DNA of 23,333 bases from Bdellovibrionota bacterium (GTDB lineage Bacteria > Bdellovibrionota_C > UBA2361 > JBIKWN01), in contig JBIKWN010000036.1 in the NCBI GenBank assembly GCA_044356295.1, positions 1-23,333 of the forward strand. Reading direction: 5' to 3'. The notes beneath the pieces are model-generated. The model saw nothing but the letters and a program-made list of their open reading frames with translations. It was not told where the DNA came from and searched no databases. Of the stretch, positions 2,625-18,070 are shown one piece after another. Numbering within the stretch: position 1 is the first letter of the stretch; each line of letters opens with the position of its first letter. Position numbers and translations under genes: made by a program.

Positions 2625-4925
2625 TTATTGCGATTCTAACCGCTCCATCTGTCGCTTCTTTAAACTCTCATTACGTTCATTAGCAACAAATTTCTCAAGC
2701 AAGATACGTTCTTCCTTTTTATCGACAGCAAGCTGACTGTATGCAAATGCACGGACTAATGATTCTGCGTTACTTAACAGCCCAACGATCTCTTCAGGTG
2801 TTGGTTTATATCCCTGATTTAATAAATATTTTGCGCCGGCAATGGTAAACGGTTCATCAGGAGTCGGTTGTGGTTTACGCAGTAATATAGCAACGACAGC
2901 TCGAGGTGCAGGATGTGTATCAAACCATTGTAAAGAAAAAAGCCTCGCTCTATCTCCAGTAACTTGAACTGTAGAAAACAGTGATATTGATTGTGTTCGA
3001 GTCAACTCGCATTCATCACTTGATAAATATTCAAAAAACTTTCGATACGAGACACCAACAAGAGAAAGAATTTTTTCAAGTGCTTGTTCACGAATACGAA
3101 CGAGTGGAAACCTCAGCAGATCAACGTACTGTTCAGTAGCAAGTTTTGACGGCAGGATCCCAGTAAAAAGGCCTAACTTATCGGAAGAAGTTACGTGTAT
3201 CCAATTGGCTACAACATCTTTTCCAAACCAAGCAAGTGGATGATCTGAATCAATAGAGATCGCTTGCATGATTGCATCCCCTAACCCAGGAATATTTTCC
3301 AAAAGCGGCATCAGTAGTTCAAGCCGAGCGAAACTGATTTTTGGCTCACGGGTAATATCTATGAAACCAGATAATACAGAAGCTGAAGTATCCATCGAAA
3401 GAATATGAGCCAGATATTGTGAAGCAGAGCTACTCATGTCTTTAACGCCGAGGCGCTCTAAAGCAAGGAAAGCACTACCGTACATTCCAGAAAGTTCGCC
3501 AAGTCGTTTCGTTGAAACTTCTTTCAGTGGATGAAAATTATCGCTTGGTGATAACGTTGCAGCGATTGCAAATGCTACGGCAGGATGAAGTTTTGATAGA
3601 TCCGGAGCTTGTCGCATTGATGGGGGCACGAGTGACGGAGCTCCAAAAATGATTAATGCTTTAAAATCGTTCTCTGATATTTCATCAGTCCACAGTGGGT
3701 GAAATGCTATGAGGAAAAATTTCTTTTGAATACTTTGATGAGCATCACCACCATCTTCAAGCCGCTTCCTTAAAAACTGCGTAGCAGTAACGTTTCCTTG
3801 CAACGCCATCTGAACAACTTGTTGCATCAGTGGTAACTGATTACTCTCCCATAATCTTGAAAATTTATCCTCTGACACTGAAACATCAACAATATTTTTT
3901 GCTTGGTCAGCTCTAAAATTATAAACAAGACCTGAAATCAAAAGTAACCCAACTAAAATCAACCATTTATATTTGGCAAGTTCAGTAGGCGTTGGGAATG
4001 CAGAGATCAATGATGAAATCTTATGAAAAATTGGATGAAGTGAGCCATCTTCTTCAGTAGCTGATTCTTTCTGTATGGGCGTAGTTTTCGATTCTGGTTT
4101 ATTAGATTCATGAACTACAGGTTCTTTTTGAGCAGGTAAAAAGTGTTTAGCAACTTGACTCAGTGTTGGTCGAAGCTTTGGATCATTTAATAAAAGCACC
4201 TCTATTAGATTTCCATACTCAACAGCTAACTCACCTCCAAAGAGGCGTTTTGCAACAAGTCCTAATCCATATACATCAGCTGCAATATCTGCTGAAAGAA
4301 CCGAAGTTTGTGTCACTCGAAGCTCTGGTGCTAACGATAATGGATGACTACTGCCTGGATCGTAAATTTGAAAACCATGATCTATTAAAATGAGTTTACT
4401 TTTTTCAAGAGCTACGTTTTGCGGTTGAATATGTCCATGTATCAATCCTTCTGCATGTAATTTTTCAACATACTGCAGTAATGCAGACATTAATTGAGGA
4501 CGCTCAGTCATTGGAATCTCAACTGCATTATCACTCAGCAAATGGGTAAAGTATTTTCGAGTCACCCAAGCTATCCCTTCATTTGATCCACACACGATAC
4601 CCTGAAGCCCTGGGGTTAACTGTTCAATATGAAATACGTAACGTTTGAAGGAATCTGTTAAACTTATAGAACCCAATAATTGAGGAGAAAAAACTCGACT
4701 CACTGTCATCTGTCCACGTTGCAAAATCACAGGTCGTACATCTTCTGTTGGACCAGATTGCGTCACTGCTCCAACAAGAACACTGCCTGGAGCAATAATT
4801 TTTTGATATTTCTGAACGAGATCCTTCTTCTCTTGAGGAAGAGCTTCGAGGCTTATAAATTTAGAAGCTGTTGGGTTATCCTTCACGAGAGACAGAACAA
4901 CTGTTGGTTTTCGAGTTGAGGTCAT
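2625..4925 (-). CDS. Membrane-anchored Ser/Thr kinase-fold protein (probable pseudokinase) with a large helical C-terminal domain
   Basis: Kinase subdomain remnants LHAEGLIHGHIQPQNV (VIb), LIDHG (VII), LAPEL (VIII), ADVYGLG (IX) and DPKLRPT (XI); low-complexity linker; TM helix WLILVGLLLISGLVY; C-terminal region with HEAT-like segments (VRIREQALEKI, LVRAFAYSQL). Confidence 0.75.
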   Translation of the reverse strand: MTSTRKPTVVLSLVKDNPTASKFISLEALPQEKKDLVQKYQKIIAPGSVLVGAVTQSGPTEDVRPVILQRGQMTVSRVFSPQLLGSISLTDSFKRYVFHIEQLTPGLQGIVCGSNEGIAWVTRKYFTHLLSDNAVEIPMTERPQLMSALLQYVEKLHAEGLIHGHIQPQNVALEKSKLILIDHGFQIYDPGSSHPLSLAPELRVTQTSVLSADIAADVYGLGLVAKRLFGGELAVEYGNLIEVLLLNDPKLRPTLSQVAKHFLPAQKEPVVHESNKPESKTTPIQKESATEEDGSLHPIFHKISSLISAFPTPTELAKYKWLILVGLLLISGLVYNFRADQAKNIVDVSVSEDKFSRLWESNQLPLMQQVVQMALQGNVTATQFLRKRLEDGGDAHQSIQKKFFLIAFHPLWTDEISENDFKALIIFGAPSLVPPSMRQAPDLSKLHPAVAFAIAATLSPSDNFHPLKEVSTKRLGELSGMYGSAFLALERLGVKDMSSSASQYLAHILSMDTSASVLSGFIDITREPKISFARLELLMPLLENIPGLGDAIMQAISIDSDHPLAWFGKDVVANWIHVTSSDKLGLFTGILPSKLATEQYVDLLRFPLVRIREQALEKILSLVGVSYRKFFEYLSSDECELTRTQSISLFSTVQVTGDRARLFSLQWFDTHPAPRAVVAILLRKPQPTPDEPFTIAGAKYLLNQGYKPTPEEIVGLLSNAESLVRAFAYSQLAVDKKEERILLEKFVANERNESLKKRQMERLESQ

Positions 4926-7836: not shown

Positions 7837-9294
7837 ATGTCGTCCATTAACTTTGCAGGATTAGCGTCCGGAATTGATACAAATGCCCTCATCGATGCGG
7901 CATCTGCTGCTACTCGAAAACAACGGGTTGAACCAAAAACAAAGAAAGTTGAAGAACTTACAGCGACAAACAGCGCTTTTGAAGAACTTAAAACTAGATT
8001 AAAAACCTTGAAATCCCTGGCTGAAGGATTTGGTACTATCAATGGTGGTGGTGTGGCAAAAAGTGCCACTTCTAGTAATGAAACAATCGCTACTGCTTCA
8101 GTTGTAAACGGAGCAACAAATGGGAATTACGATATCTCAGTGAGTGCACTGGCAAAGGCTGCTTCATATTCGTTTAACTATAACTATACAGGAAGCAGCG
8201 ATACTCTTTTTAACGCTGGAGAATCTGGAACGGTACAATTTCAGATCGGAAATTCTAGTACAGAAACTGTGGATGTAACTGTTACAGCGGGAATGACCGT
8301 CGCTGAATTCGTAACTCAATTTAATAATAATAGCGCACGTGCTGAAGCGAGTGTGGTTCAAATCGGATCAGGGCAATACCGAATCTTAATTACAACCAAT
8401 AACACTGGTACTGATGCAGGAGCAATTACCAGCTCAACAGTCAGTGCAAACTCTAGAATTGGAACAACTGTAGGCATTGGAGCTAATCAAGTTACGACTG
8501 ATTCTGCTACCAATGCAACATTCACTATGAATGGGATAGGCCCGTTTACTCGGCAATCAAATAAAATCTCTGATGTTATACCGGGATTAACATTTGAACT
8601 TTTAAGTTCTCCTGGAACCGTAAAACTCTCTGTCGGTGATGATCCTGATGCATCCATTGCAGCATTAAAGAAGTTTATTGATGCTTACAATCAGGTAGTA
8701 CTATACATTGAGGAAAATGATCAGATCTCTCAAGAAAACACTTCAGGTGAGGTGCAAAGTATCTTTGCACCTTTTGCATCGACCCGAACGGACAACTCTG
8801 CGTTAACTACCATACGCGAAACAATGTCTGCAATCCGATATCCTGACGTTATTCCTCCAGGGCAAGAAGGTTTATTTCCTGTTCGAATTCTAGCGGATAT
8901 GGGAATTGAAACTCAGAGAGACGGAACATTGAAATTTAATGAAACGACTTCAACGAGTGGTTTTTCAAGTTTTAGAAACGCACTTTCAAAAGATCCAACT
9001 GCAGTATCAGAGCTAACAAAAGAACTTGGGGATAAATTAGGCTTTACCTATAACGCTGCTGCAGGTACCGGTATTATTGACTCGATTGTAGGTTTCAATC
9101 GTTTATTTGATACAACAGTGAATAGCAATAAAACCCTCATTGAATCTTTGAATAACCAAGTTGCAGATGCAGAAAAATCAATTGCTCAAACTGAAGCAAA
9201 TATGAAAGCGCAATTTGCAAGACTTGAGTCTTTGATGAGTAAATTGCAGCAGCAGCAATCGAGTCTAACGAGTGCACTTTCGGGATTACGATAA
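7837..9294 (+). CDS. fliD: Flagellar filament cap protein FliD (HAP2)
   Basis: N-terminus INFAGLASGIDTNALID; GNYDISVSALAKA; SNKISDVIPGLTFEL; FIDAYN; LADMGIETQRDGTL; C-terminal MKAQFARLESLMSKLQQQQS. Confidence 0.95.
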   Translation: MSSINFAGLASGIDTNALIDAASAATRKQRVEPKTKKVEELTATNSAFEELKTRLKTLKSLAEGFGTINGGGVAKSATSSNETIATASVVNGATNGNYDISVSALAKAASYSFNYNYTGSSDTLFNAGESGTVQFQIGNSSTETVDVTVTAGMTVAEFVTQFNNNSARAEASVVQIGSGQYRILITTNNTGTDAGAITSSTVSANSRIGTTVGIGANQVTTDSATNATFTMNGIGPFTRQSNKISDVIPGLTFELLSSPGTVKLSVGDDPDASIAALKKFIDAYNQVVLYIEENDQISQENTSGEVQSIFAPFASTRTDNSALTTIRETMSAIRYPDVIPPGQEGLFPVRILADMGIETQRDGTLKFNETTSTSGFSSFRNALSKDPTAVSELTKELGDKLGFTYNAAAGTGIIDSIVGFNRLFDTTVNSNKTLIESLNNQVADAEKSIAQTEANMKAQFARLESLMSKLQQQQSSLTSALSGLR

Positions 9295-9430: not shown

Positions 9431-10591
9431 TTACTCTATAATCTTATTAATCAAATAATTAACAACAGCAAGAACTCGAGGTTTTATAGTAGAAATATAA
9501 ATCATTTCATTCTCCGTATGAGCGCCGATACCGTAAGGACCAAGTGCATCTAACGTTGGAATTCCAAGACTGCCAATAAGATTTGCATCGCTTAATCCAC
9601 CAACTCGGGGAAGTTCTTTAATTTGAAAATCTACCTCTGCTGCTTTTCGAGCAAATATTTCAAGCATCGCATCCGTTTTTGGAACTTTATTCAAAGGAGC
9701 TGTCTTCGTGTCTATAACAATAGATGCGTTTTCATATTGATCAACAATTTTTTGAAGCTGTTCATAAGACTGATCCATATCTTCAATAGTTCCAGCACGA
9801 ATCTCAATCCCAAGCGTTGCTTTTTCTGGTACTATACAAAATTGTTGCCCACCTTGAAGTTGTGAAACATTGACTGTGATATCTTTTTCAAGATTTGTAA
9901 GTGACGCTGCCTTCACAGCAATATCACAGATAGGCACAAGTGCATTACTGCCTTCACTGAAACTATTTCCAGAATGCGCAGCTTTTCCAACAACATTTAC
10001 CCAGCACTCAAGAATCCCCTTTCGTTGAGTAACAATACCACCGTCAACTCTTCCAATTTCAAACACTAAAGCTTCCTGAGCACCTTCTGCAATTTGTTGA
10101 ATTAATTTAGCACTGGTAGGAGTAGAATTTTCTTCACATGAATTAACTATAATTTTCAAAGGAAGGTGATCTAGTTTTTCTAATTTCTTTAAAATATCAA
10201 GAACTAGAAAAATATGAATGAGGCCTCCTTTCATATCAAGGACACCAGGGCCTGACATTTGATCTCCTTGAATTGACCAGTTTTGAAATCGAGACTGCGG
10301 GGGGTGAACTGTATCTGCATGCCCTACTAATAAGATCGGCTCACGATTGGCATTTGTAAGGTCTTTCCCATCGAATGAGTTCTTTGCAACAAGAATATCA
10401 GCACGTTTTGGACATGAAATTCGCTCTGTTCGAAGACCCATCTCCCAAAAGCTATCTTCCAGAATACTTTGAATCTTATGAACCCCTTCTCTATTGGTTG
10501 TATAGCTATTTTGATTGACGAGCTGCTTTAAAAGCTCAAATCGAGCAGGAAATACTTCATCGAAAATAGTTGAAAACAGTTGGGGGGTCAT
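9431..10591 (-). CDS. M20 family metallopeptidase (carboxypeptidase G2/ArgE/DapE-like)
   Basis: Metal-ligand motifs [39 protein letters not shown] and GAHTENE. Confidence 0.9.
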
Positions 10592-10629
10592 TTTTTATTT
10601 TGTTCCAGTTATATGCGAATATACCCCTT

Positions 10630-11616
10630 ATGACACAGATTTCAACCGATTGGACAGTCGATAAAGCATTAACGATATATGAGCTTCCACTTCCTGATCT
10701 TATCTTTAAAGCACAAACAATTCACCGTGAAACTTTTGATCCGAATGCAGTACAGCGCTCAACCCTACTATCAGTCAAGACTGGTGGATGCCCTGAAAAC
10801 TGTGGTTACTGCCCCCAGAGTGCACACCACGATACTGGAGTTGAAAAACATGGTGTCCTTCCAAAAGATGTAGTTCTTTCAGAAGCACAGAAAGCAAAAG
10901 AAGCAGGCTCTACCCGTTTTTGTATGGGTGCAGCTTGGAGAGAGGTAAAAGATGGTAAAGATTTTGACCATATTATAGACCTCGTATCATCAGTTTCAGA
11001 TATGGGAATGGAAGTTTGTTGCACACTCGGGATGCTGACTGAATCTCAGGCAAAACGTCTTAAAGATGCAGGGTGCCACGCTTATAATCATAATCTTGAT
11101 ACATCCCCTGAATATTACGGCGATATTATTACGACTCGTGTTTATGAAGATCGCCTTCGGACATTAGGAAATGTTCGAAATGCAGGTATTACTGTTTGTT
11201 GCGGAGGTATTGTTGGACTCGGAGAAAAAATTCGAGACCGCCTTGGACTTCTTACTCAACTTGCAACACAAGATCCTCACCCAGAAAGTGTGCCGATTAA
11301 TATGCTCATGCGAATTGAAGGAACACCACTGGCTGATCAACCACCAGTAGATCCAATCGAGTTTGTTCGAATTATCGCAACTGCACGAATTATGATGCCA
11401 AAATCGATGGTAAGACTTTCTGCAGGAAGAACTCAGATGAGTGATGAGATGCAGGCACTGTGTTTTATTGCTGGAGCAAACTCAATTTTTGCTGGAGATA
11501 AACTTTTAACTGCAGATAACCCTGGAGAAGACCACGATAATAGATTGATGCAAAAACTTGGTATGTATTGGTTTGGAGCTTCTGATGCTACCCAAAACGT
11601 CTGCAAAGCGGCTTGA
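10630..11616 (+). CDS. bioB: Biotin synthase (radical SAM)
   Basis: [15 protein letters not shown] (CxxxCxxC), [43 protein letters not shown]. Start moved to ATG 10630 because the TTG 10570 start overlaps the divergent gene. Confidence 0.98.
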
Positions 11617-12718
11617 AGAAAGAACCTCATTAGGGAACCTTCGTTCGTTATCAATAACGGATGATTCTCTTGTTGATTTTTGCTCGAATGATTATTTAGG
11701 CTTTTCAACATCTGGAGCTATTTCAGCTCGACTTCATGAACATCCTCTTTTTCAAGAAGAAAGAAAATTTGGAAGTACTGGTTCAAGACTGCTTTCAGGA
11801 AATTCCAAATATATCGAATCGCTTGAATCTAAAATTGCCGCAATGCATGGTTTTGAATCAGCATTATTATTTTCCACTGGATACGCTGCGAATGCAGGAG
11901 TTATTCAAGCATTCGCAACTCGTCACGATACCATTATTTATGATGAACTTTCACATGCATCGATTATCGATGGGGCACGAGCTTCAATTGCAAAAAATAT
12001 CCGGAGTTTTCGTCATAATAATATAGAGGACCTTAGAGAAAAAATTAAAAAAGGATCCGGGGATGTTTATGTCGTCACTGAATCCGTCTTTAGTATGGAC
12101 GGTGATTTTGCACCATTGGAAGATATCACCACTGTGTGTGAAGAAGAGAATGCTTTCTGCATCGTTGATGAAGCACATGCACTTGGACTTTTTGGGAAAG
12201 ATGGTAATGGTCGCCTGTATGAACTAGGGTTAGAAAAAAAGGTTTTGGCAAGTATTGTTACTTTTGGAAAAGCACTTGGTGCTCACGGCGCAGCAGTATT
12301 GTGCTCAACCAAAGCGAAAGAATTTTTAATCAATTTCTGTAGACCATTTATTTATTCAACTGCTCCTGATTTTCACCTGCTTGCTGCAATCGATATTGGA
12401 TATGACTTACTTCGAGAGCGCTCAAAAGAAACTTCGCAGCTTTTTTTTCTTGTCCATGAGTTCAGGAACACTGCGAAAAAATATCCACAGTTTAAGACTT
12501 TAGATTCACTGACAGCAATTCAAGGAATTATTCTTGGAACAAATGAAAGAGCTAAAAAAGCATCCGGTATCCTTCGAGATTCAAAAATAAACGTAAAAGC
12601 GATTCTTTCACCAACGGTGGCCGAAGGTTCAGAGCGCCTCAGAATCTGTCTGCATACTTTTAATACTCCACCTGAAATACAAGCAGTTTTTTATGAGCTC
12701 GGAAAAGCAACAATTTAA
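11585..12718 (+). CDS. bioF: 8-amino-7-oxononanoate synthase
   Basis: [51 protein letters not shown] (PLP lysine), PTV...RLRI. GGAG precedes ATG 11585, which overlaps the end of bioB. Confidence 0.95.
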
Positions 12719-13352
12719 ATTTTTTATTTCCGGTATTGGAACTGACGTCGGCAAAACTGTCGTTAGTACGATTTTAACAACTGCACTAGAAGCAGATTAC
12801 TGGAAACCGATACAATCTGGAGATCTTGATTGTACCGATACAATGAAAGTACAAACACTGGTTACCACAGCCAATCCTAAGCATCGTGGATTTTTTCATA
12901 GCGAAATCTATCAACTAAATTTTCCACTCTCGCCACACATTAGCGCAGAGAAAAGTAATATAAGCATTGATACTACAAAATTTCAGCCCCCCAAAACTAA
13001 CAATCACTTAATCATTGAAGGTGCTGGTGGGCTTCTGGTACCGATCACTCGAAAATTTCTTGTTGCTGATCTGATAAAGCAATTAGAAACTCCTGTCATC
13101 ATTGTTTCTAGACACTATCTTGGAAGTATCAATCACACACTCATGACGATTGAATCACTTCAACACAGAAGATTACCCATAAAAGGGATTATCTTTAATG
13201 GTGAAGAAAATAGTGGCACTGAATCCGTTATTACTGATCTTTATCCATCTATTCCATTCTACCGAATCCCTCATACAGATGAATTATCAGCAAAATTCAT
13301 TTCTCATGAAGCTTCACGTATACTTCCATTTATAAATCAATGTCTCGTATAG
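12693..13352 (+). CDS. bioD: Dethiobiotin synthase
   Basis: P-loop GIGTDVGKT, YWKPIQSG, IIEGAGGLLVP, LGSINHT; overlaps the end of bioF. Confidence 0.96.
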   Translation: MSSEKQQFKFFISGIGTDVGKTVVSTILTTALEADYWKPIQSGDLDCTDTMKVQTLVTTANPKHRGFFHSEIYQLNFPLSPHISAEKSNISIDTTKFQPPKTNNHLIIEGAGGLLVPITRKFLVADLIKQLETPVIIVSRHYLGSINHTLMTIESLQHRRLPIKGIIFNGEENSGTESVITDLYPSIPFYRIPHTDELSAKFISHEASRILPFINQCLV

Positions 13353-14611
13353 CAACACTCGACAAACAGTATATTTGGCACCCATTTGAAATGCCTGAAT
13401 CGCTTCCAGCGATACCGATTACACATGCAAAAGGTGTCCATCTTTACACTGAGGACGGAAGAACAATTATTGATGCAATTTCATCATGGTGGGTTAACTT
13501 ACATGGCCATGCACACCCGAAGATAACTGAAGCGATACAAGCTCAAGCTGAAAAACTTCACCATATTATTTTTGCAGGATTTACCCACGAACCCGCAGCC
13601 CTGTTAGCTGAAAAGCTAATGACAAAACTTCCCGCTAACCAACATAAATTATTCTTCTCTGATAATGGTTCTACAGCAATCGAAATCGCACTTAAAATCT
13701 GTATTCAATACTGGAAGAATCTTGGAGTAAAAAAATCCAAGATTATCGCCTTAGAAAATGGATACCATGGAGATACGTTTGGGGCAATGTCTGCCGGAGA
13801 AAGATCTATTTTTGTTACTCCGTTCAGAGAGTATCTCTTTGAAGTTTGTTTTATTCCTTCACCTGCTCTGAATCCAGACGGGGCAATAAATAAACTCAGA
13901 GAACTTGCTTCTCATAACGATGTAGCTGCATTCATCTTCGAACCACTCGTTCAAGGCGCAGGTGGCATGTTGATGTATGAGCCATCAGTTCTCAATTCAC
14001 TATTAACGATTGCACATGAATTTGATATTCCATGTATTGCAGATGAAGTGATGACTGGGTTTGGAAGAACAGGAAAATGGTTTGCAAGCGATCATTGTGC
14101 TGAAAAACCAGACCTTATATGTCTTTCAAAAGGTTTAACCGGAGGCACCTTACCCCTTGCTATTACAAGTTGTTCTGAAAAAATATTTAAGGCTTTCGAT
14201 TCGACGAGCCGTGATAAAGGTTTTTTTCATGGACATTCTTTTTCAGGAAATCCTCTTGCCTGTGCTGCAGCAGTTGCAAGCTTTGATCTGCTTAATACCA
14301 CTTCCTGTTGGGAGCAGATTGGATTCCTTATAAACCATCAAAAAGCTTTTGGTGAACTCATGAAAAATCATCCAAAAGTAAAAGAGACAAGAAGCTTTGG
14401 TGCTATTTGTGCAATCAATGTAAAGACAAGAGAGAATTCTTCTTACTTAAATCCAGTAAGAGATATCGTCATGAGTAGTTGCTTACAACAAGGAGTGATG
14501 ATTCGTCCACTCGGAGACCTAATCTATATTATCCCCCCCTACTGTATCACTGAATCTGAACTTTTAACTGTCTATGAAGCTGTTACCAAAGCTATCGATC
14601 TTCTTCCTTAA
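13340..14611 (+). CDS. bioA: 7,8-diaminopelargonate aminotransferase
   Basis: IWHPF, DAISSWWVN, SDNGSTAIEIALK, YHGDTFGAMS, EPLVQGAGGM, ADEVMTGFGRTG, LSKGLTGG (PLP lysine), HGHSF, RPLG. Confidence 0.96.
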   Translation: MSRIATLDKQYIWHPFEMPESLPAIPITHAKGVHLYTEDGRTIIDAISSWWVNLHGHAHPKITEAIQAQAEKLHHIIFAGFTHEPAALLAEKLMTKLPANQHKLFFSDNGSTAIEIALKICIQYWKNLGVKKSKIIALENGYHGDTFGAMSAGERSIFVTPFREYLFEVCFIPSPALNPDGAINKLRELASHNDVAAFIFEPLVQGAGGMLMYEPSVLNSLLTIAHEFDIPCIADEVMTGFGRTGKWFASDHCAEKPDLICLSKGLTGGTLPLAITSCSEKIFKAFDSTSRDKGFFHGHSFSGNPLACAAAVASFDLLNTTSCWEQIGFLINHQKAFGELMKNHPKVKETRSFGAICAINVKTRENSSYLNPVRDIVMSSCLQQGVMIRPLGDLIYIIPPYCITESELLTVYEAVTKAIDLLP

Positions 14612-14617
14612 AATTTT

Positions 14618-15787
14618 ATGTCTTCTACTAAAGTATATATCACTAAATTTGGAGGATACTTCGGACAACCAACTCTGTTTCAAGACGGCACCCCTGTTTT
14701 TGCATTTAAAGATGAAACGCACGATGTTATCAATAAAACCCTAGAACTTCTTAGCACGCGCACCCAGCATACAAATTCATTCGATAGAGTAACTAAACTT
14801 GCCTTAGCAAGCACATTAAAAGCATTTGATAATCAACATCTCCCAAACGATTGCACAGTCATTGCAGCCTCTGCGCGTGGAGCAACTGAAACAGTTGAAA
14901 AAGCCGTTCTTTCATTTAGTGAAGAACATAAAGTTAACCCACTAACATCTCCTTTTACCACTGCAGGCGGAATTGCAAGTTCGGTTGCAAGACTTCTTAG
15001 TACTACTCCTGATACTTCTATAAGTATTGGCACCTCAATGGCATGTGCATCTTTTTTTGAAGCACTACTCATTGCTCAAAGTTTTATTGTATCAAAAAAA
15101 TCAAAACGTGTGGTCGTCATTGGAGCAGAAGCGCCGCTGACTGCTTTTACTATTGCACAGATGAAGGCATTAAAGATCTATTCTAAATATCCTTTTAATG
15201 ACTCTCCTTGCCGCCCCTTTGAATGCATATCGGAGCACAAAAACAGCCTTGTTCTTGGCGAAGCTTGTGGAACGTTTCTGATCGAATCAGAAGAAAGCAT
15301 ATCTGAAACAAAAAATATTCCGATAGCAGAACTTTCAGGAATTGGATTCTCACAAGAGCTTTCAAGTACTTTAACAGGAATGAATGATGAAGGTATTGGA
15401 TACCAAACTTCCATGAAGCAAGCTCTTTATGAAGCAAAAATTCAAAGACCTGATTTTATAGTAGCTCATGGTGCAGGAACAATTATTGGTGATAGTGCAG
15501 AAAAAAAATCTCTAGAAACTCTTTTTAATAACGAAGTTCCACCAGTATTTTCAACGAAACATTTAACTGGTCATACATTTGGAGCATCTGCTGCAATCTC
15601 TCTACTATTTGCCTTAGAAGCATTTCAGCAACAAACTCTTCCAAAAAGTCCCTTCGGTGTATTCATGAATGAGAGCTACAAAAATTACTTCGCACTCGCG
15701 CATACGTCTATCTCTTCTTGCATTATTAATGCATCAGGTTTTGGGGGAGTCTCGTTATCAGCGGTTTTGCGCAGCCCACACTCTTAG
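14618..15787 (+). CDS. Beta-ketoacyl-ACP synthase, FabF/FabB (KAS I/II)-type, last gene of the bio operon
   Basis: Catalytic Cys in SMACAS; CRPF; LGEA; His in VAHGAGT; Lys/His in STKHLTGHTFGAS; C-terminal INASGFGG. Starts 6 bp after the bioA stop. Confidence 0.88.
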   Translation: MSSTKVYITKFGGYFGQPTLFQDGTPVFAFKDETHDVINKTLELLSTRTQHTNSFDRVTKLALASTLKAFDNQHLPNDCTVIAASARGATETVEKAVLSFSEEHKVNPLTSPFTTAGGIASSVARLLSTTPDTSISIGTSMACASFFEALLIAQSFIVSKKSKRVVVIGAEAPLTAFTIAQMKALKIYSKYPFNDSPCRPFECISEHKNSLVLGEACGTFLIESEESISETKNIPIAELSGIGFSQELSSTLTGMNDEGIGYQTSMKQALYEAKIQRPDFIVAHGAGTIIGDSAEKKSLETLFNNEVPPVFSTKHLTGHTFGASAAISLLFALEAFQQQTLPKSPFGVFMNESYKNYFALAHTSISSCIINASGFGGVSLSAVLRSPHS

Positions 15788-16747
15788 TGAGTCGGGAATC
15801 TTGCCATTAAAGGCTACAGTCGTACCCTTCTGATTAGGATTTATCTTATGATGGAACGATCTTGGTCCTAACTCATCAAGCTCTATCGCTTTTGCAGCAA
15901 TATCCTGATCAGTTACTTGGCTCCAAGGTTTAGAAAACATCACGTTATTTTCTGGAGCATCAAATTTCGGCAAGTTATACATTGATTGATGGAATTTTGG
16001 CCAAAAATCACGGTAATGCTCAATCTTCCGCTTAAGATTGAGCCAAGAAACATGCAAGACTGATGGAAGAAGTGATAAGGACTCCTCAAAGAAGGGTTTA
16101 AAGACCTCTGGGGGCATTGAAAAACTTGGCACTTCTACTGGAACCAACGATCGAACTGACTCTTTTGTGTCCTTATATATATAGTTACAGGAATCAGACT
16201 CAAAAGGTTTTGGATACACATGCCCCGCTTGATCAAAGACTTGATATTCATTGGGGATACCATGGGTAATACGAGGGTCATTTTTACTGAGACGCTGCTT
16301 CCATGTGAAAAAATCGGCACGAATTCTTTCAAAGCTCCCCCAAAACTCAATCATGGGTAAGTACACAATTGGTGCTTCTTCAAAAAGAGGAGCTAAAAGC
16401 TCAGGAAGTTTACGAATTCTTGCAAAATCATGAGGTGCAACAATTTCATCAGTATCAGTTTGCCAACAGTAATCTGATGTACAGCGAGCGCGGGCCTTAG
16501 CCTTCATATATCCATCCATATAAATCGCCCAGCGAGGATGGGTGAAATCTACAGGACAGACATAAAATGAGATTCTTGAATCTTTACGAGATAACCGATC
16601 AAGCAACTCGAGTGTTCCATCGCTACTGCCCCCATCAACAATTGAGATCTGGTCACTAAAACCTAAAAGACTTTCAATGCACAACTCAAGTGGATACTGA
16701 CGTTCAATACAGTTATAGGTGGTGGTATATGAAGAGATTGAAACCAT
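15758..16747 (-). CDS. Glycosyltransferase family 2 (GT-A fold)
   Basis: N-terminal TTTYN...CIESLL, IVDGGSSDGT and DxD motif QTDTDE. Its 3' end overlaps the ketosynthase 3' end by 30 bp. Confidence 0.85.
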   Translation of the reverse strand: MVSISSYTTTYNCIERQYPLELCIESLLGFSDQISIVDGGSSDGTLELLDRLSRKDSRISFYVCPVDFTHPRWAIYMDGYMKAKARARCTSDYCWQTDTDEIVAPHDFARIRKLPELLAPLFEEAPIVYLPMIEFWGSFERIRADFFTWKQRLSKNDPRITHGIPNEYQVFDQAGHVYPKPFESDSCNYIYKDTKESVRSLVPVEVPSFSMPPEVFKPFFEESLSLLPSVLHVSWLNLKRKIEHYRDFWPKFHQSMYNLPKFDAPENNVMFSKPWSQVTDQDIAAKAIELDELGPRSFHHKINPNQKGTTVAFNGKIPDSLRVWAAQNR

Positions 16748-17152
16748 TTGCAGGAGAATACCGCACTCTATGAAAACAGAAAATTGAGTAAAATGATTAA
16801 ATTGGTGGTTTTCCCTTTAAAACTTCTATTGAAAGGGTCAAATAAGAAGAAATATAGATAAAAATTTATCCAAATAAGAATTATTCATAGAAATTAATAA
16901 ATCGAGTAAAGCTAAAACTTAGTACCTGAACACTTGATAAATACCTGAAATTTGGTATGCGATGATCAAACTTAAGATCCTGGCGCATTTATTTTCTACG
17001 AAAATTTTGGAATTTAATACCAATTCGAGTTTGAAATGCATTTTTGGCTATAGAAAAAACAAGCTCCGTCCGTTCCTAAATCTAAGCAGATTAAGTGTGT
17101 CGTGGTTCCTTCTTTAAGCAGTGTTTGAACCCGAAATACGAAATTATTTAGT

Positions 17153-17209: not shown

Positions 17210-18070
17210 ATGCCCATAACCATCAACTCAAACATTGCGTCGTTACAAGCTCAACGAAGACTTGGTATTGCTAACGAAGCATTAAATGACACATACCAGA
17301 AGTTAAGTTCTGGTCAACGTATTAACAAAGCTAGTGATGATGCTGCAGGACTCGCGATTGCGGACGCATTAAAAGCTAACCAACGAGTTGCAAGTGTTGC
17401 AATCAGAAATGCGAACGACGGTATCTCTACTGTTGCTATCGCTGATGGCGCACTTAACGAAATTGGTAACGTACTTTCACGTCTCGCAGAGCTCTCTGAG
17501 CAGTCAGCGAACGGCACGTTTTCTACAACTCAGCGTTCAGCGCTACAGAACGAATTCTCAGCACTTGCTTCTGAGATTGAGCGTATTGCAACTGTTACTT
17601 CATTCAACGGTGTTAAGCTGTTGTCAGGTGGTGCATCAGTTGTTCTTCAGGTTGGATTCGACTCACAATCGACTTCACAAATCAGCATTACGAACGTGTC
17701 AGGTACATTGTCATCATTAGGACTTGCTCCAGGCGGCTCTTCTGCATTGACATATTCAATCAGCGGAACATCCATCTCTGACGGTCAATCGGCTTCAAGA
17801 CTTGCTCTTGATGCGGTGAACAATGCTATCTCATCTCTTGCAAGTACAAGAGGTAACTTAGGAGCTGCTGAATCGAGACTTCGTGTATCGATCAACAACC
17901 TTCAAGTAGCACGTGAGAACTTTGCTTCTGCTGAAAGCCGAATCCGTGACGTTGACGTTGCGAGTGAAGCTGCTGAACTTACCAGAATTGGTATTTTACA
18001 ACAGGCAGGTGCTTCGATTCTTGCGCAAGCAAACCAACAGCCTCAGTTGGCTCTTACTCTTCTACGATAA
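17210..18070 (+). CDS. fliC: Flagellin (short, D0/D1 only)
   Basis: INSNIASL, LSSGQRINKASDDAAGLAI, RNANDGIS, LQVG, RGNLGA, AESRIRDVD, ILAQANQQP. Confidence 0.98.
   Translation: MPITINSNIASLQAQRRLGIANEALNDTYQKLSSGQRINKASDDAAGLAIADALKANQRVASVAIRNANDGISTVAIADGALNEIGNVLSRLAELSEQSANGTFSTTQRSALQNEFSALASEIERIATVTSFNGVKLLSGGASVVLQVGFDSQSTSQISITNVSGTLSSLGLAPGGSSALTYSISGTSISDGQSASRLALDAVNNAISSLASTRGNLGAAESRLRVSINNLQVARENFASAESRIRDVDVASEAAELTRIGILQQAGASILAQANQQPQLALTLLR

Follow-up and report, generated by a model that had tools for sequence, protein, structure and literature searches.

Downstream of the biotin genes in a 23,333-nt stretch of DNA from a Bdellovibrionota bacterium (contig JBIKWN010000036.1 of assembly GCA_044356295.1; the whole stretch is referred to here as the window) lies a gene that encodes a 389-residue ketosynthase (KS) with the fold of the type I and II β-ketoacyl-acyl carrier protein synthases (KAS I/II). 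We propose, with a probability of about 0.7, that KS is a dedicated condensing enzyme of biotin synthesis that forms pimeloyl-acyl carrier protein (pimeloyl-ACP) and needs no methyl ester to do so. The proposal builds on the anatomy, family membership, linkage, distribution and residue conservation of KS, which were followed from the window into related genomes and metagenomes. An earlier reading of the window made from its letters alone (the sequence-only reading) had suggested that KS could be a dedicated condensing enzyme and an analogue of BioZ from another ketosynthase class. Computational analysis supports this assignment through four kinds of evidence: a clade separate from FabF and FabB, linkage to the bio genes, complementarity with the known pimelate routes, and an arginine (Arg87) in the predicted acyl pocket.

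Linkage of the ketosynthase to biotin genes

Homologues of KS were examined in two sets of loci. The first contains the 80 best loci among species-representative genomes, which come mostly from Flavobacteriaceae, Hymenobacteraceae and Sphingobacteriaceae and also include Bdellovibrionota metagenome-assembled genomes (MAGs) and one Pirellulaceae MAG; the second contains 80 metagenome loci from a separate scan seeded with divergent high-GC members of the family (set A2). Bio genes are present at 69 of the 80 genome loci and at 60 of the 80 metagenome loci. Where at least 3 kb of sequence is available on both sides of KS, a bio gene lies within 3 kb in 53 of 59 genome loci and in 28 of 32 metagenome loci. 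Recurring as it does in so many independent loci, the linkage is far beyond chance; it confirms the bio-linked ketosynthases that the sequence-only reading had mentioned for Bacteroidota, and extends them to Bdellovibrionota and the Pirellulaceae MAG.

The bioA gene ends no more than 300 bp upstream of KS in 52 of the 80 genome loci. The typical arrangement in this set is bioF-bioD-bioA-KS, and bioB often comes next. Four gene orders were seen in total: bioBFDA-KS in the window, bioFDA-KS-bioB in Bacteroidota, bioF-KS pairs, and bioD-KS. The bioF-KS pairs belong to a large genus of the window's phylum (genomes G385 and G410), in which the two genes form a unit of their own and bioD lies ~16 kb away, and the bioD-KS order was found in G326, the sole carrier in that phylum outside the window's order, where bioD overlaps KS. 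Linkage that is kept through four gene orders is strong evidence of shared function. The nearest named relative of the window's gene cluster is a Bdellovibrionota MAG (locus L011) that encodes a KS 61% identical to that of the window, in the same order, bioF-bioD-bioA-KS.

Of the fatty acid synthesis machinery, these clusters appear to contain KS only. No homologue of ACP, FabD or KAS III was found in 84 related loci and the window, and the FabG-like open reading frames (ORFs) in the same set number only three, all of them distant and at least 3 kb from KS. FabZ-like dehydratases are absent from the conserved neighbour families of the KS loci, a survey in which no dedicated FabZ query was made. 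The 80 metagenome loci contain no extended clusters with ACP, ketoreductase and dehydratase genes, as the matches are KS-only bio clusters with 30-38% identity to the seed, and beside KS the 80 genome loci show no conserved gene for a CoA-transferase, a ligase or lysine catabolism.

Some loci differ from the usual arrangement. In three marine metagenome contigs (L153, L156 and L170) KS has no bio genes beside it and is followed after ~0.9 kb by a housekeeping-type acpP (77 bits) and a true fabF (~430 bits). KS is likewise not bio-linked in seven Sphingobacteriaceae loci from Pedobacter, Sphingobacterium and Daejeonella (among them L016, L046, L048, L051 and L058); the seven proteins form one subclade (support 100), and in five of these loci KS is followed by a 118-residue QueD-like (6-pyruvoyl-tetrahydropterin-synthase) gene. 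The bio clusters of 23 Flavobacteriaceae loci (e.g. L068:7602-8015) carry a conserved ORF of 126-160 residues between bioF and bioD that is absent from the window, and whose product matches DUF2007 weakly and has a hydrophobic stretch and, at its C terminus, a zinc-ribbon-like CxxC...CxxC. Flavobacterium-type bio-KS clusters also occur in two contigs from one study that are labelled as a Bifidobacterium breve MAG (L039) and a Bdellovibrio sp. ZAP7 MAG (L084); both contigs are probably mis-binned, as the tree places their KS sequences among those of Flavobacterium and other Bacteroidota.

Distribution relative to the known pimelate routes

The distribution of KS was determined in 301 Bacteroidota genomes (BioC threshold, E ≤ 1e-35) and in 124 genomes of the window's phylum (full-length BioC matches, E ≤ 1e-30). 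In Bacteroidota, KS is present in 19 genomes, BioC in 112 and BioD in 160; all 19 KS-bearing genomes have BioD, and KS was found in none of the 141 genomes that lack it. In the window's phylum, KS is present in 57 genomes, 56 of which belong to the window's order, and 51 of the 57 have BioD. BioC is present in 22 genomes of the phylum, all of them in sister orders, and in none of the 57 with KS. G326, the lone carrier outside the order, also lacks BioC and is a second, independent instance of the KS/BioC swap. Neither set thus contains a genome with both KS and BioC (0 of 301 and 0 of 124).

Five KS genomes were searched for the known routes, namely the window's own, a complete Flavobacterium, a Hymenobacter, a Pontibacter and a complete Bacteroidota MAG; controls for the BioC, BioG, BioW and BioH searches in B. 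thetaiotaomicron, B. subtilis and E. coli were positive as expected. In the five genomes the best BioC match reached 79.8 bits against a cut-off of 184.95, the best BioH match 95 bits against a cut-off of 206.95, and BioG and BioW gave no match. The sequence-only reading had named anti-correlation of KS with the known routes as a check of its proposal, and this is the pattern seen, with BioG and BioW absent and no BioH above its cut-off in the five KS genomes searched, and co-occurrence of KS and BioC in 0 of 425 genomes.

Other routes were also seen in the sample. A putative BioE, which is a bio-linked ferritin-like protein of 207-212 residues that has two ExxH motifs and matches nothing in Pfam or NCBIfam (L275:6382-7005, protein P0272; L269:6715-7353), was found in BioD-positive genomes that have neither KS nor BioC, and is 51% identical between the two clusters; judged by the description in the BioE papers, the P0272-type protein is probably the published BioE. 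Its homologues are present in 8 of the 301 Bacteroidota genomes, none of which has KS or BioC, and in none of the 124 genomes of the window's phylum. One Bacteroidota locus (L258, G076:C6) has the order bioB-bioF-FabH-like (343 residues)-bioA-bioD, a BioZ-type cluster outside the alpha-proteobacteria of the kind noted for Rhodothermus in PMC7645780. Since the FabH-like gene between bioF and bioA was detected in G076, BioZ-type clusters would have been seen. A lone bioD homologue lies beside lpxK, with no other bio gene near, in two genomes (L092 in G011 and L094 in G005), and because of these stand-alone genes BioD by itself is an imperfect marker of biotin prototrophy in Bacteroidota.

The ketosynthase forms a family distinct from housekeeping FabF and FabB

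KS has the N- and C-terminal ketoacyl-synthase domains of the thiolase fold, together with a Cys-His-His triad and a lysine. Its AlphaFold2 model (predicted local distance difference test score 88.3, predicted template modelling score 0.91) finds its best Foldseek matches in FabF of B. subtilis, E. coli and S. pneumoniae, with template modelling scores of 0.80-0.85 at only 20-24% sequence identity. Against the fabF equivalog model (TIGR03150) KS scores 129.8 bits, far below the cut-off of 493.75. A profile constructed from 20 family members (A1) gave bimodal scores when searched against the 301 Bacteroidota genomes: the best match scored 294-506 bits in 19 genomes, and everything else, FabF included, scored at most 204 bits. 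The window's KS scores 497.6 bits with this profile and has Arg87, Ser111, Thr115, Cys143, His284, Lys314 and His319, which places it within what we call the Arg-pocket family.

A quick IQ-TREE phylogeny of 94 rows, which included E. coli FabF and FabB and the FabF of the window's genome (one truncated row was dropped), separated 82 family rows from 12 FabF/FabB rows with a Shimodaira-Hasegawa-like approximate likelihood ratio test support of 100. The only other KAS I/II gene of the genome, located on contig C51, encodes a true FabF that is 51% identical to E. coli FabF, and elsewhere the genome encodes a single AcpP (65% identical), a single FabD and a FabG-like protein. The sequence-only reading had named a grouping with housekeeping FabF as the genome's only copy as a refutation, and this was not found: KS falls in a separate, fully supported clade, scores 130 bits where 494 are required of a FabF, and is not the sole copy in a genome that has its own FabF. 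A feature search also placed two mostly-Uroviricota ketosynthase clusters beside KS, but the KS-like proteins of viral contigs are only 19-27% identical and do not belong to this family. The homologues are named only generically by NCBI, and the genomes that carry them are currently scored as lacking early biotin synthesis.

An invariant arginine in the predicted acyl pocket

All four motifs that the sequence-only reading had quoted are present in the KS translation (GTSMACASF, VAHGAGT, STKHLTGH and AASARGAT). Arg87, Ser111, Cys143, His284, Lys314 and His319 are invariant both in the family members from the loci (82 of 82) and in the full-length members retrieved by two database searches (253 of 253). 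To relate these residues to the FabF pocket, we used a 95-sequence alignment that contains E. coli FabF and FabB (mature E. coli numbering). Arg87, Thr90, Ser111, Thr115, Gln181 and Met182 in KS occupy the columns of FabF Ile108, Leu111, Val134, Ile138, Gly201 and Phe202, respectively. A profile alignment to Listeria FabF (3o04) likewise positions the KS segment "gsaRGaTetlE" opposite "GSGIGGMETFE".

In FabF, Ile108 and Phe202 form a "back gate" at approximately C7-C8 of the bound acyl chain, and the I108F mutation limits the enzyme to short chains, as described in PMC9006962. By alignment, KS has no such hydrophobic gate, as the two columns contain Arg87 and Met182. With hydroxyl and amide side chains around it, the invariant Arg87 would close the pocket and exclude long acyl chains, and its site would offer carboxylate binding at the depth reached by a C5 diacid attached to the active site cysteine. 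The arginine of ASARGAT had been singled out earlier as atypical of housekeeping FabF, and its invariance in the 253 sequences and its alignment with Ile108 in the acyl pocket bear this out.

A proposed route to pimeloyl-ACP and its alternatives

From these features we infer the substrate and product of KS and the role of Arg87 as follows. Cys143 would carry the acyl primer, and His284, Lys314 and His319 would decarboxylate malonyl-ACP through KAS I/II chemistry; judged by its residues, KS retains all that is needed for a decarboxylative Claisen condensation with malonyl-ACP. Arg87, Thr90, Ser111, Thr115 and Gln181 would have turned the hydrophobic acyl pocket into a short and polar one, and this pocket would hold the free ω-carboxylate of a short-chain dicarboxyl primer, glutaryl (C5) being the most likely. 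KS would then join the primer to malonyl-ACP to form 3-oxopimeloyl-ACP, which ordinary FabG, FabZ and FabI, working on the cell's single ACP, would reduce to pimeloyl-ACP for use by BioF. BioC methylation and BioH-type demethylation would be unnecessary, because this route would use the free carboxylate. There is precedent for the final steps, as E. coli FabG, FabA and FabI turn the free-carboxylate product of BioZ into pimeloyl-ACP (PMC7645780). That KS forms the pimeloyl chain from one primer or another is slightly more probable than the methyl-ester-free assignment as a whole, whereas the specific version with a single round on glutaryl is tentative and falls somewhat short of an even chance.

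Several points weigh against the proposal. KAS I/II enzymes normally take acyl-ACP primers, and the seven acyl-CoA dehydrogenases of the genome, considered as a source of glutaryl-CoA, include none that reaches a naming NCBIfam cut-off. The location of Arg87 in the pocket is taken from the sequence alignment and the literature, and glutaryl-ACP is described in PMC7645780 as never observed in nature. Six of the 57 KS-bearing genomes in the window's phylum have no BioD match; these are MAGs of 62-97% completeness, with G381 at 97%. The complementarity of KS and BioC is partly phylogenetic, as whole orders and clades share the same state, and the Fisher p value of 2e-10 overstates the independence of the observations. 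Bio genes are missing from eleven of the 80 genome loci, of which five are short contigs or have KS at a contig end; the Sphingobacteriaceae members seen have KS consistently unlinked to bio genes, and in a few Flavobacteriales KS is likewise not adjacent to them. Lastly, the window's genome has three KAS III-like ORFs elsewhere, one of which could in principle act like BioZ. Two of these are adjacent divergent genes (C70:23071-24855) and the third is of the PRK09258 type (C18:47101-47442), and no FabH above the TIGR00747 cut-off was found in this genome.

The questions about the primer bear most directly on a variant of the proposal in which only the origin of the glutaryl unit differs. KS would prime with malonyl (C3) bearing a free carboxylate, fatty acid synthesis would convert the product into glutaryl-ACP, and a second round by KS would lead to pimeloyl-ACP, such that three malonyl units are used wholly on ACP, without methyl esters and with KS as the only dedicated protein. 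Such a scheme would employ the ACP-bound primers that KAS I/II enzymes use or prefer, and it dispenses with a source of glutaryl-ACP, for which none is known, and with a glutaryl-CoA pool, which is not demonstrable from the acyl-CoA dehydrogenases. It also agrees with the lack of a conserved CoA-transferase, ligase or lysine-catabolic gene beside KS, with the spread of the family over metabolically different phyla and with the three metagenome loci in which KS precedes acpP-fabF, and the same logic has been proposed for Desulfovibrio (PMC10102598). However, the 3-oxoglutaryl-ACP formed in the first round, with its free carboxylate, is a β-keto acid that by general chemistry should decarboxylate readily; the Desulfovibrio clusters bring their own ACP, reductase and dehydratases, whereas no ACP is linked to KS in the 84 loci and the window; and the polar site formed by Arg87, Thr90, Ser111, Thr115 and Gln181 at the C7-C8 depth fits a C5 diacid better than a C3 one. 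We consider iteration unlikely, and rank it second to the single-round glutaryl version because of its β-keto acid first product and the lack of a linked ACP, reductase and dehydratases.

Two further alternatives would remove KS from free-carboxylate chemistry or from biotin altogether. KS could elongate methyl esters, a task of FabB and FabF in E. coli, together with a methyltransferase and an esterase that are non-homologous to BioC and to BioH/BioG/BioK/BioJ/BioV. Generic S-adenosylmethionine-dependent methyltransferases do occur in all five KS genomes, with best scores of 62-80 bits against the BioC model, as do alpha/beta hydrolases, which score up to 95 bits against the BioH model, and the esterases of this pathway are described as notoriously diverse (PMC3494674). 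Nevertheless, no methyltransferase or hydrolase family is conserved beside KS in 80 loci, a methyl ester that mimics a hydrophobic chain would need the reverse of a pocket that combines an invariant arginine with four polar substitutions, and a second ketosynthase would be redundant as housekeeping FabF could already elongate methyl esters; we regard this explanation as very improbable. Least probable of all is that KS serves lipid or secondary metabolism, as a FabB-like or flexirubin-type enzyme, and that its place after bioA is a conserved accident. The Sphingobacteriaceae and the few Flavobacteriales in which the gene is away from bio genes, and the three loci near acpP-fabF, are what such a role would lead one to expect. 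The linkage to bio genes, however, is maintained across three phyla and at least four gene orders, KS is confined to BioD-positive genomes in the Bacteroidota sample, and an arginine at C7-C8 would close the pocket to long acyl chains. Moreover, the genomes checked in which KS is unlinked have BioA above its cut-off elsewhere in five of five cases and BioC in none of the five.

Operon anatomy and surroundings

The positions of the operon genes, their neighbours and the catalytic codons are listed in Table 1. As the sequence-only reading had described, bioB, bioF, bioD and bioA overlap one another, by 32 or 59 nt for bioB/bioF (depending on the bioF start), 26 nt for bioF/bioD and 13 nt for bioD/bioA, and KS follows the bioA stop after a 6-nt spacer; the coordinates and family profiles agree with this layout. 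The best family for bioF is TIGR00858, with 332.7 bits, under its cut-off of 426. The bio transcription unit ends with KS, because the convergent glycosyltransferase gene overlaps the 3' end of KS. The bio promoter must lie inside the short intergenic region upstream of bioB or within the neighbouring gene. A consensus promoter scan of positions 10300-16900 gave nothing above shuffled sequences, promoter-like sites being fewer than in the shuffles, and a terminator scan of the same interval gave no convincing terminator.

Table 1. Features of the bio operon and its flanks in the window, with the codons of the pocket arginine and the catalytic residues of KS.
Feature	Position	Strand	Remarks
M20 peptidase gene	9431-10591	-	divergent neighbour of bioB
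Divergent intergenic region	10592..10629		38 bp, between the M20 peptidase gene and bioB
bioB, biotin synthase	10630..11616	+	TIGR00433, 399.5 bits (cut-off 225); Radical_SAM and BATS domains; start ATG at 10630
bioF, 8-amino-7-oxononanoate synthase	11585..12718	+	first ATG at 11585, ORF opens with TTG at 11558; consumer of the pimeloyl thioester
bioD, dethiobiotin synthase	12693..13352	+	TIGR00347, 125.8 bits (cut-off 83.3)
bioA, adenosylmethionine-8-amino-7-oxononanoate transaminase	13340..14611	+	TIGR00508, 524.1 bits (cut-off 405)
KS, bio-linked KAS I/II-fold ketosynthase	14618..15787	+	389 residues; PF00109 and PF02801; candidate pimeloyl-ACP-forming condensing enzyme
Arg87 codon	14876..14878	+	family-invariant; at E. 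coli FabF Ile108
Active site Cys143 codon	15044..15046	+	FabF Cys163
His284 codon	15467..15469	+	FabF His303
Lys314 to His319 codons	15557..15574	+	STKHLTGH; FabF Lys335 and His340
Family 2 (GT2) glycosyltransferase gene	15758..16747	-	convergent; 30-nt overlap with the 3' end of KS; not part of the system

The window ORFs include no bioC, bioH, bioG, bioW, KAS III, ACP or fab gene, in agreement with the absence of known pimelate-supply, ACP and fab genes reported in the sequence-only reading. The remaining genes of the window are htrA, a kinase-like gene, ispG, lpxD, fliD, the M20 peptidase and GT2 glycosyltransferase genes, a flagellin gene, a comEC-like gene, an M48 peptidase gene and acs. 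The bio operon is flanked by fliD (7837-9294) and by a 286-residue flagellin gene (17210-18070), with lpxD and ispG farther upstream; these surroundings are ordinary, being the usual synteny of a motile Gram-negative bacterium. At 2625-4925 on the minus strand, a 766-residue ORF has as its sole match a weak protein-kinase domain (24.6 bits, under the cut-off). The source assembly has a size of 2.96 Mb in 128 contigs and is 93.6% complete. The window occurs in DNA runs of lake-water metagenomes, one of which may be its origin, and no RNA run was listed for it.

Significance

The pimelate arm is the variable and still incomplete part of bacterial biotin synthesis. Papers from 2025 on BioE list four routes (BioC-BioH, BioI-BioW, BioZ and BioE), and the BioE route itself was published in December 2025 from several Bacteroidota families (PMC12704756). 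The list of known routes in the sequence-only reading had left out BioE and the extended bio cluster of Desulfovibrio. If KS is a dedicated pimeloyl-ACP-forming enzyme, its family would be a further route beyond these four. It is the only candidate route in ~6% of the Bacteroidota genomes (19 of the 301 sampled) and in close to half of those from the window's phylum (57 of the 124 sampled), mostly in one order, and its recognition would provide an annotation remedy for genomes that are now scored as lacking early biotin synthesis. It would also be a natural case of a FabF pocket remodelled by an arginine so as to take a dicarboxylate, and such a pocket could be useful for the production of odd-chain diacids. 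Should KS work iteratively, one enzyme, helped only by FabG, FabZ and FabI, would suffice for oxygen-independent, methyl-ester-free de novo synthesis of pimelate, and this would overturn the view that intermediates with a free ω-carboxyl group are beyond fatty acid synthesis unless BioC disguises them or an ACP, a reductase and a dehydratase are dedicated to them. In the openly searchable full-text literature, we found no paper on a FabF-type ketosynthase in Bacteroidota or Bdellovibrionota bio clusters.

Comparison with known systems

KS resembles FabF and FabB in its fold, its catalytic Cys, His, Lys and His residues, the phenylalanine of the GFGG gating loop and the threonine and asparagine of the malonyl site. 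It differs from them in being only 20-28% identical and ~25 residues shorter, and in being encoded with bio genes and not with fabD-fabG-acpP. The BioC-BioH(G/K/J/V), BioW/BioI and BioE routes would have the same task as KS, which is to supply BioF with a pimeloyl thioester, and they are mutually exclusive with KS in the genomes sampled. Their proteins and chemistry are unrelated to KS, as they use a methyl-ester disguise, the ligation of free pimelate, or the oxidative cleavage of long acyl chains.

Desulfovibrio offers a precedent for a bio cluster with a KAS I/II-type enzyme, DVU2563, which is genetically required for biotin synthesis. It was predicted in 2004 (PMC545781), and transposon fitness data show that the cluster, DVU2563 included, is needed for growth without biotin (PMC10102598). 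As described in these papers, the extended cluster (DVU2558-DVU2565) contains the FabF-type KAS DVU2563, the ACP DVU2562, the reductase DVU2561 and two FabZ-like proteins, to which the nitroreductase-like DVU1220 is added. Set beside one another by published descriptions, the two systems share a KAS I/II-type gene located in a bio cluster that lacks bioC, bioH and bioW, and in both pimeloyl-ACP is proposed to form without methyl esters by means of a less hydrophobic active site. They differ in that the Desulfovibrio cluster has four more dedicated proteins (ACP, reductase and dehydratases), whereas here KS appears to be the only dedicated one and the genome has a single AcpP. No ACP homologue was found in the 84 KS loci and the window, the three FabG-like ORFs are distant, FabZ-like genes are absent from the conserved neighbour families, and housekeeping acpP-fabF is nearby in 3 of the 80 metagenome loci. 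The Desulfovibrio-type cluster has been reported only from anaerobes (Desulfobacterota and Chrysiogenetes), whereas the KS hosts compared here are Bacteroidota and Bdellovibrionota.

The closest functional parallel to KS is BioZ, the KAS III/FabH-type 3-ketoacyl-ACP synthase of alpha-proteobacterial bio operons (described in PMC7645780, PMC8024396 and PMC12625853). The two differ in architecture and chemistry, as BioZ has a Cys-His-Asn triad, the FabH architecture and a CoA primer, whereas KS has a Cys-His-His triad with a lysine and the architecture of FabF; KS scores 23.9 bits against TIGR00747, for which the cut-off is 292.1, and has a partial 24.7-bit match to the KAS III Pfam domain. The predicted carboxylate site is also distinct, being at the FabF back gate in KS (Arg87); in BioZ, Arg147 was once proposed for this role, but is also conserved in FabH and was found to be dispensable (PMC12625853). 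Despite these differences, both are single condensing enzymes that are encoded with the bio genes of genomes lacking BioC and BioH, where they would bypass methyl esters and leave completion of the chain to ordinary fatty acid synthesis. By analogy, KS and BioZ probably catalyse the same reaction, in which a glutaryl thioester and malonyl-ACP are converted into 3-oxopimeloyl-ACP.

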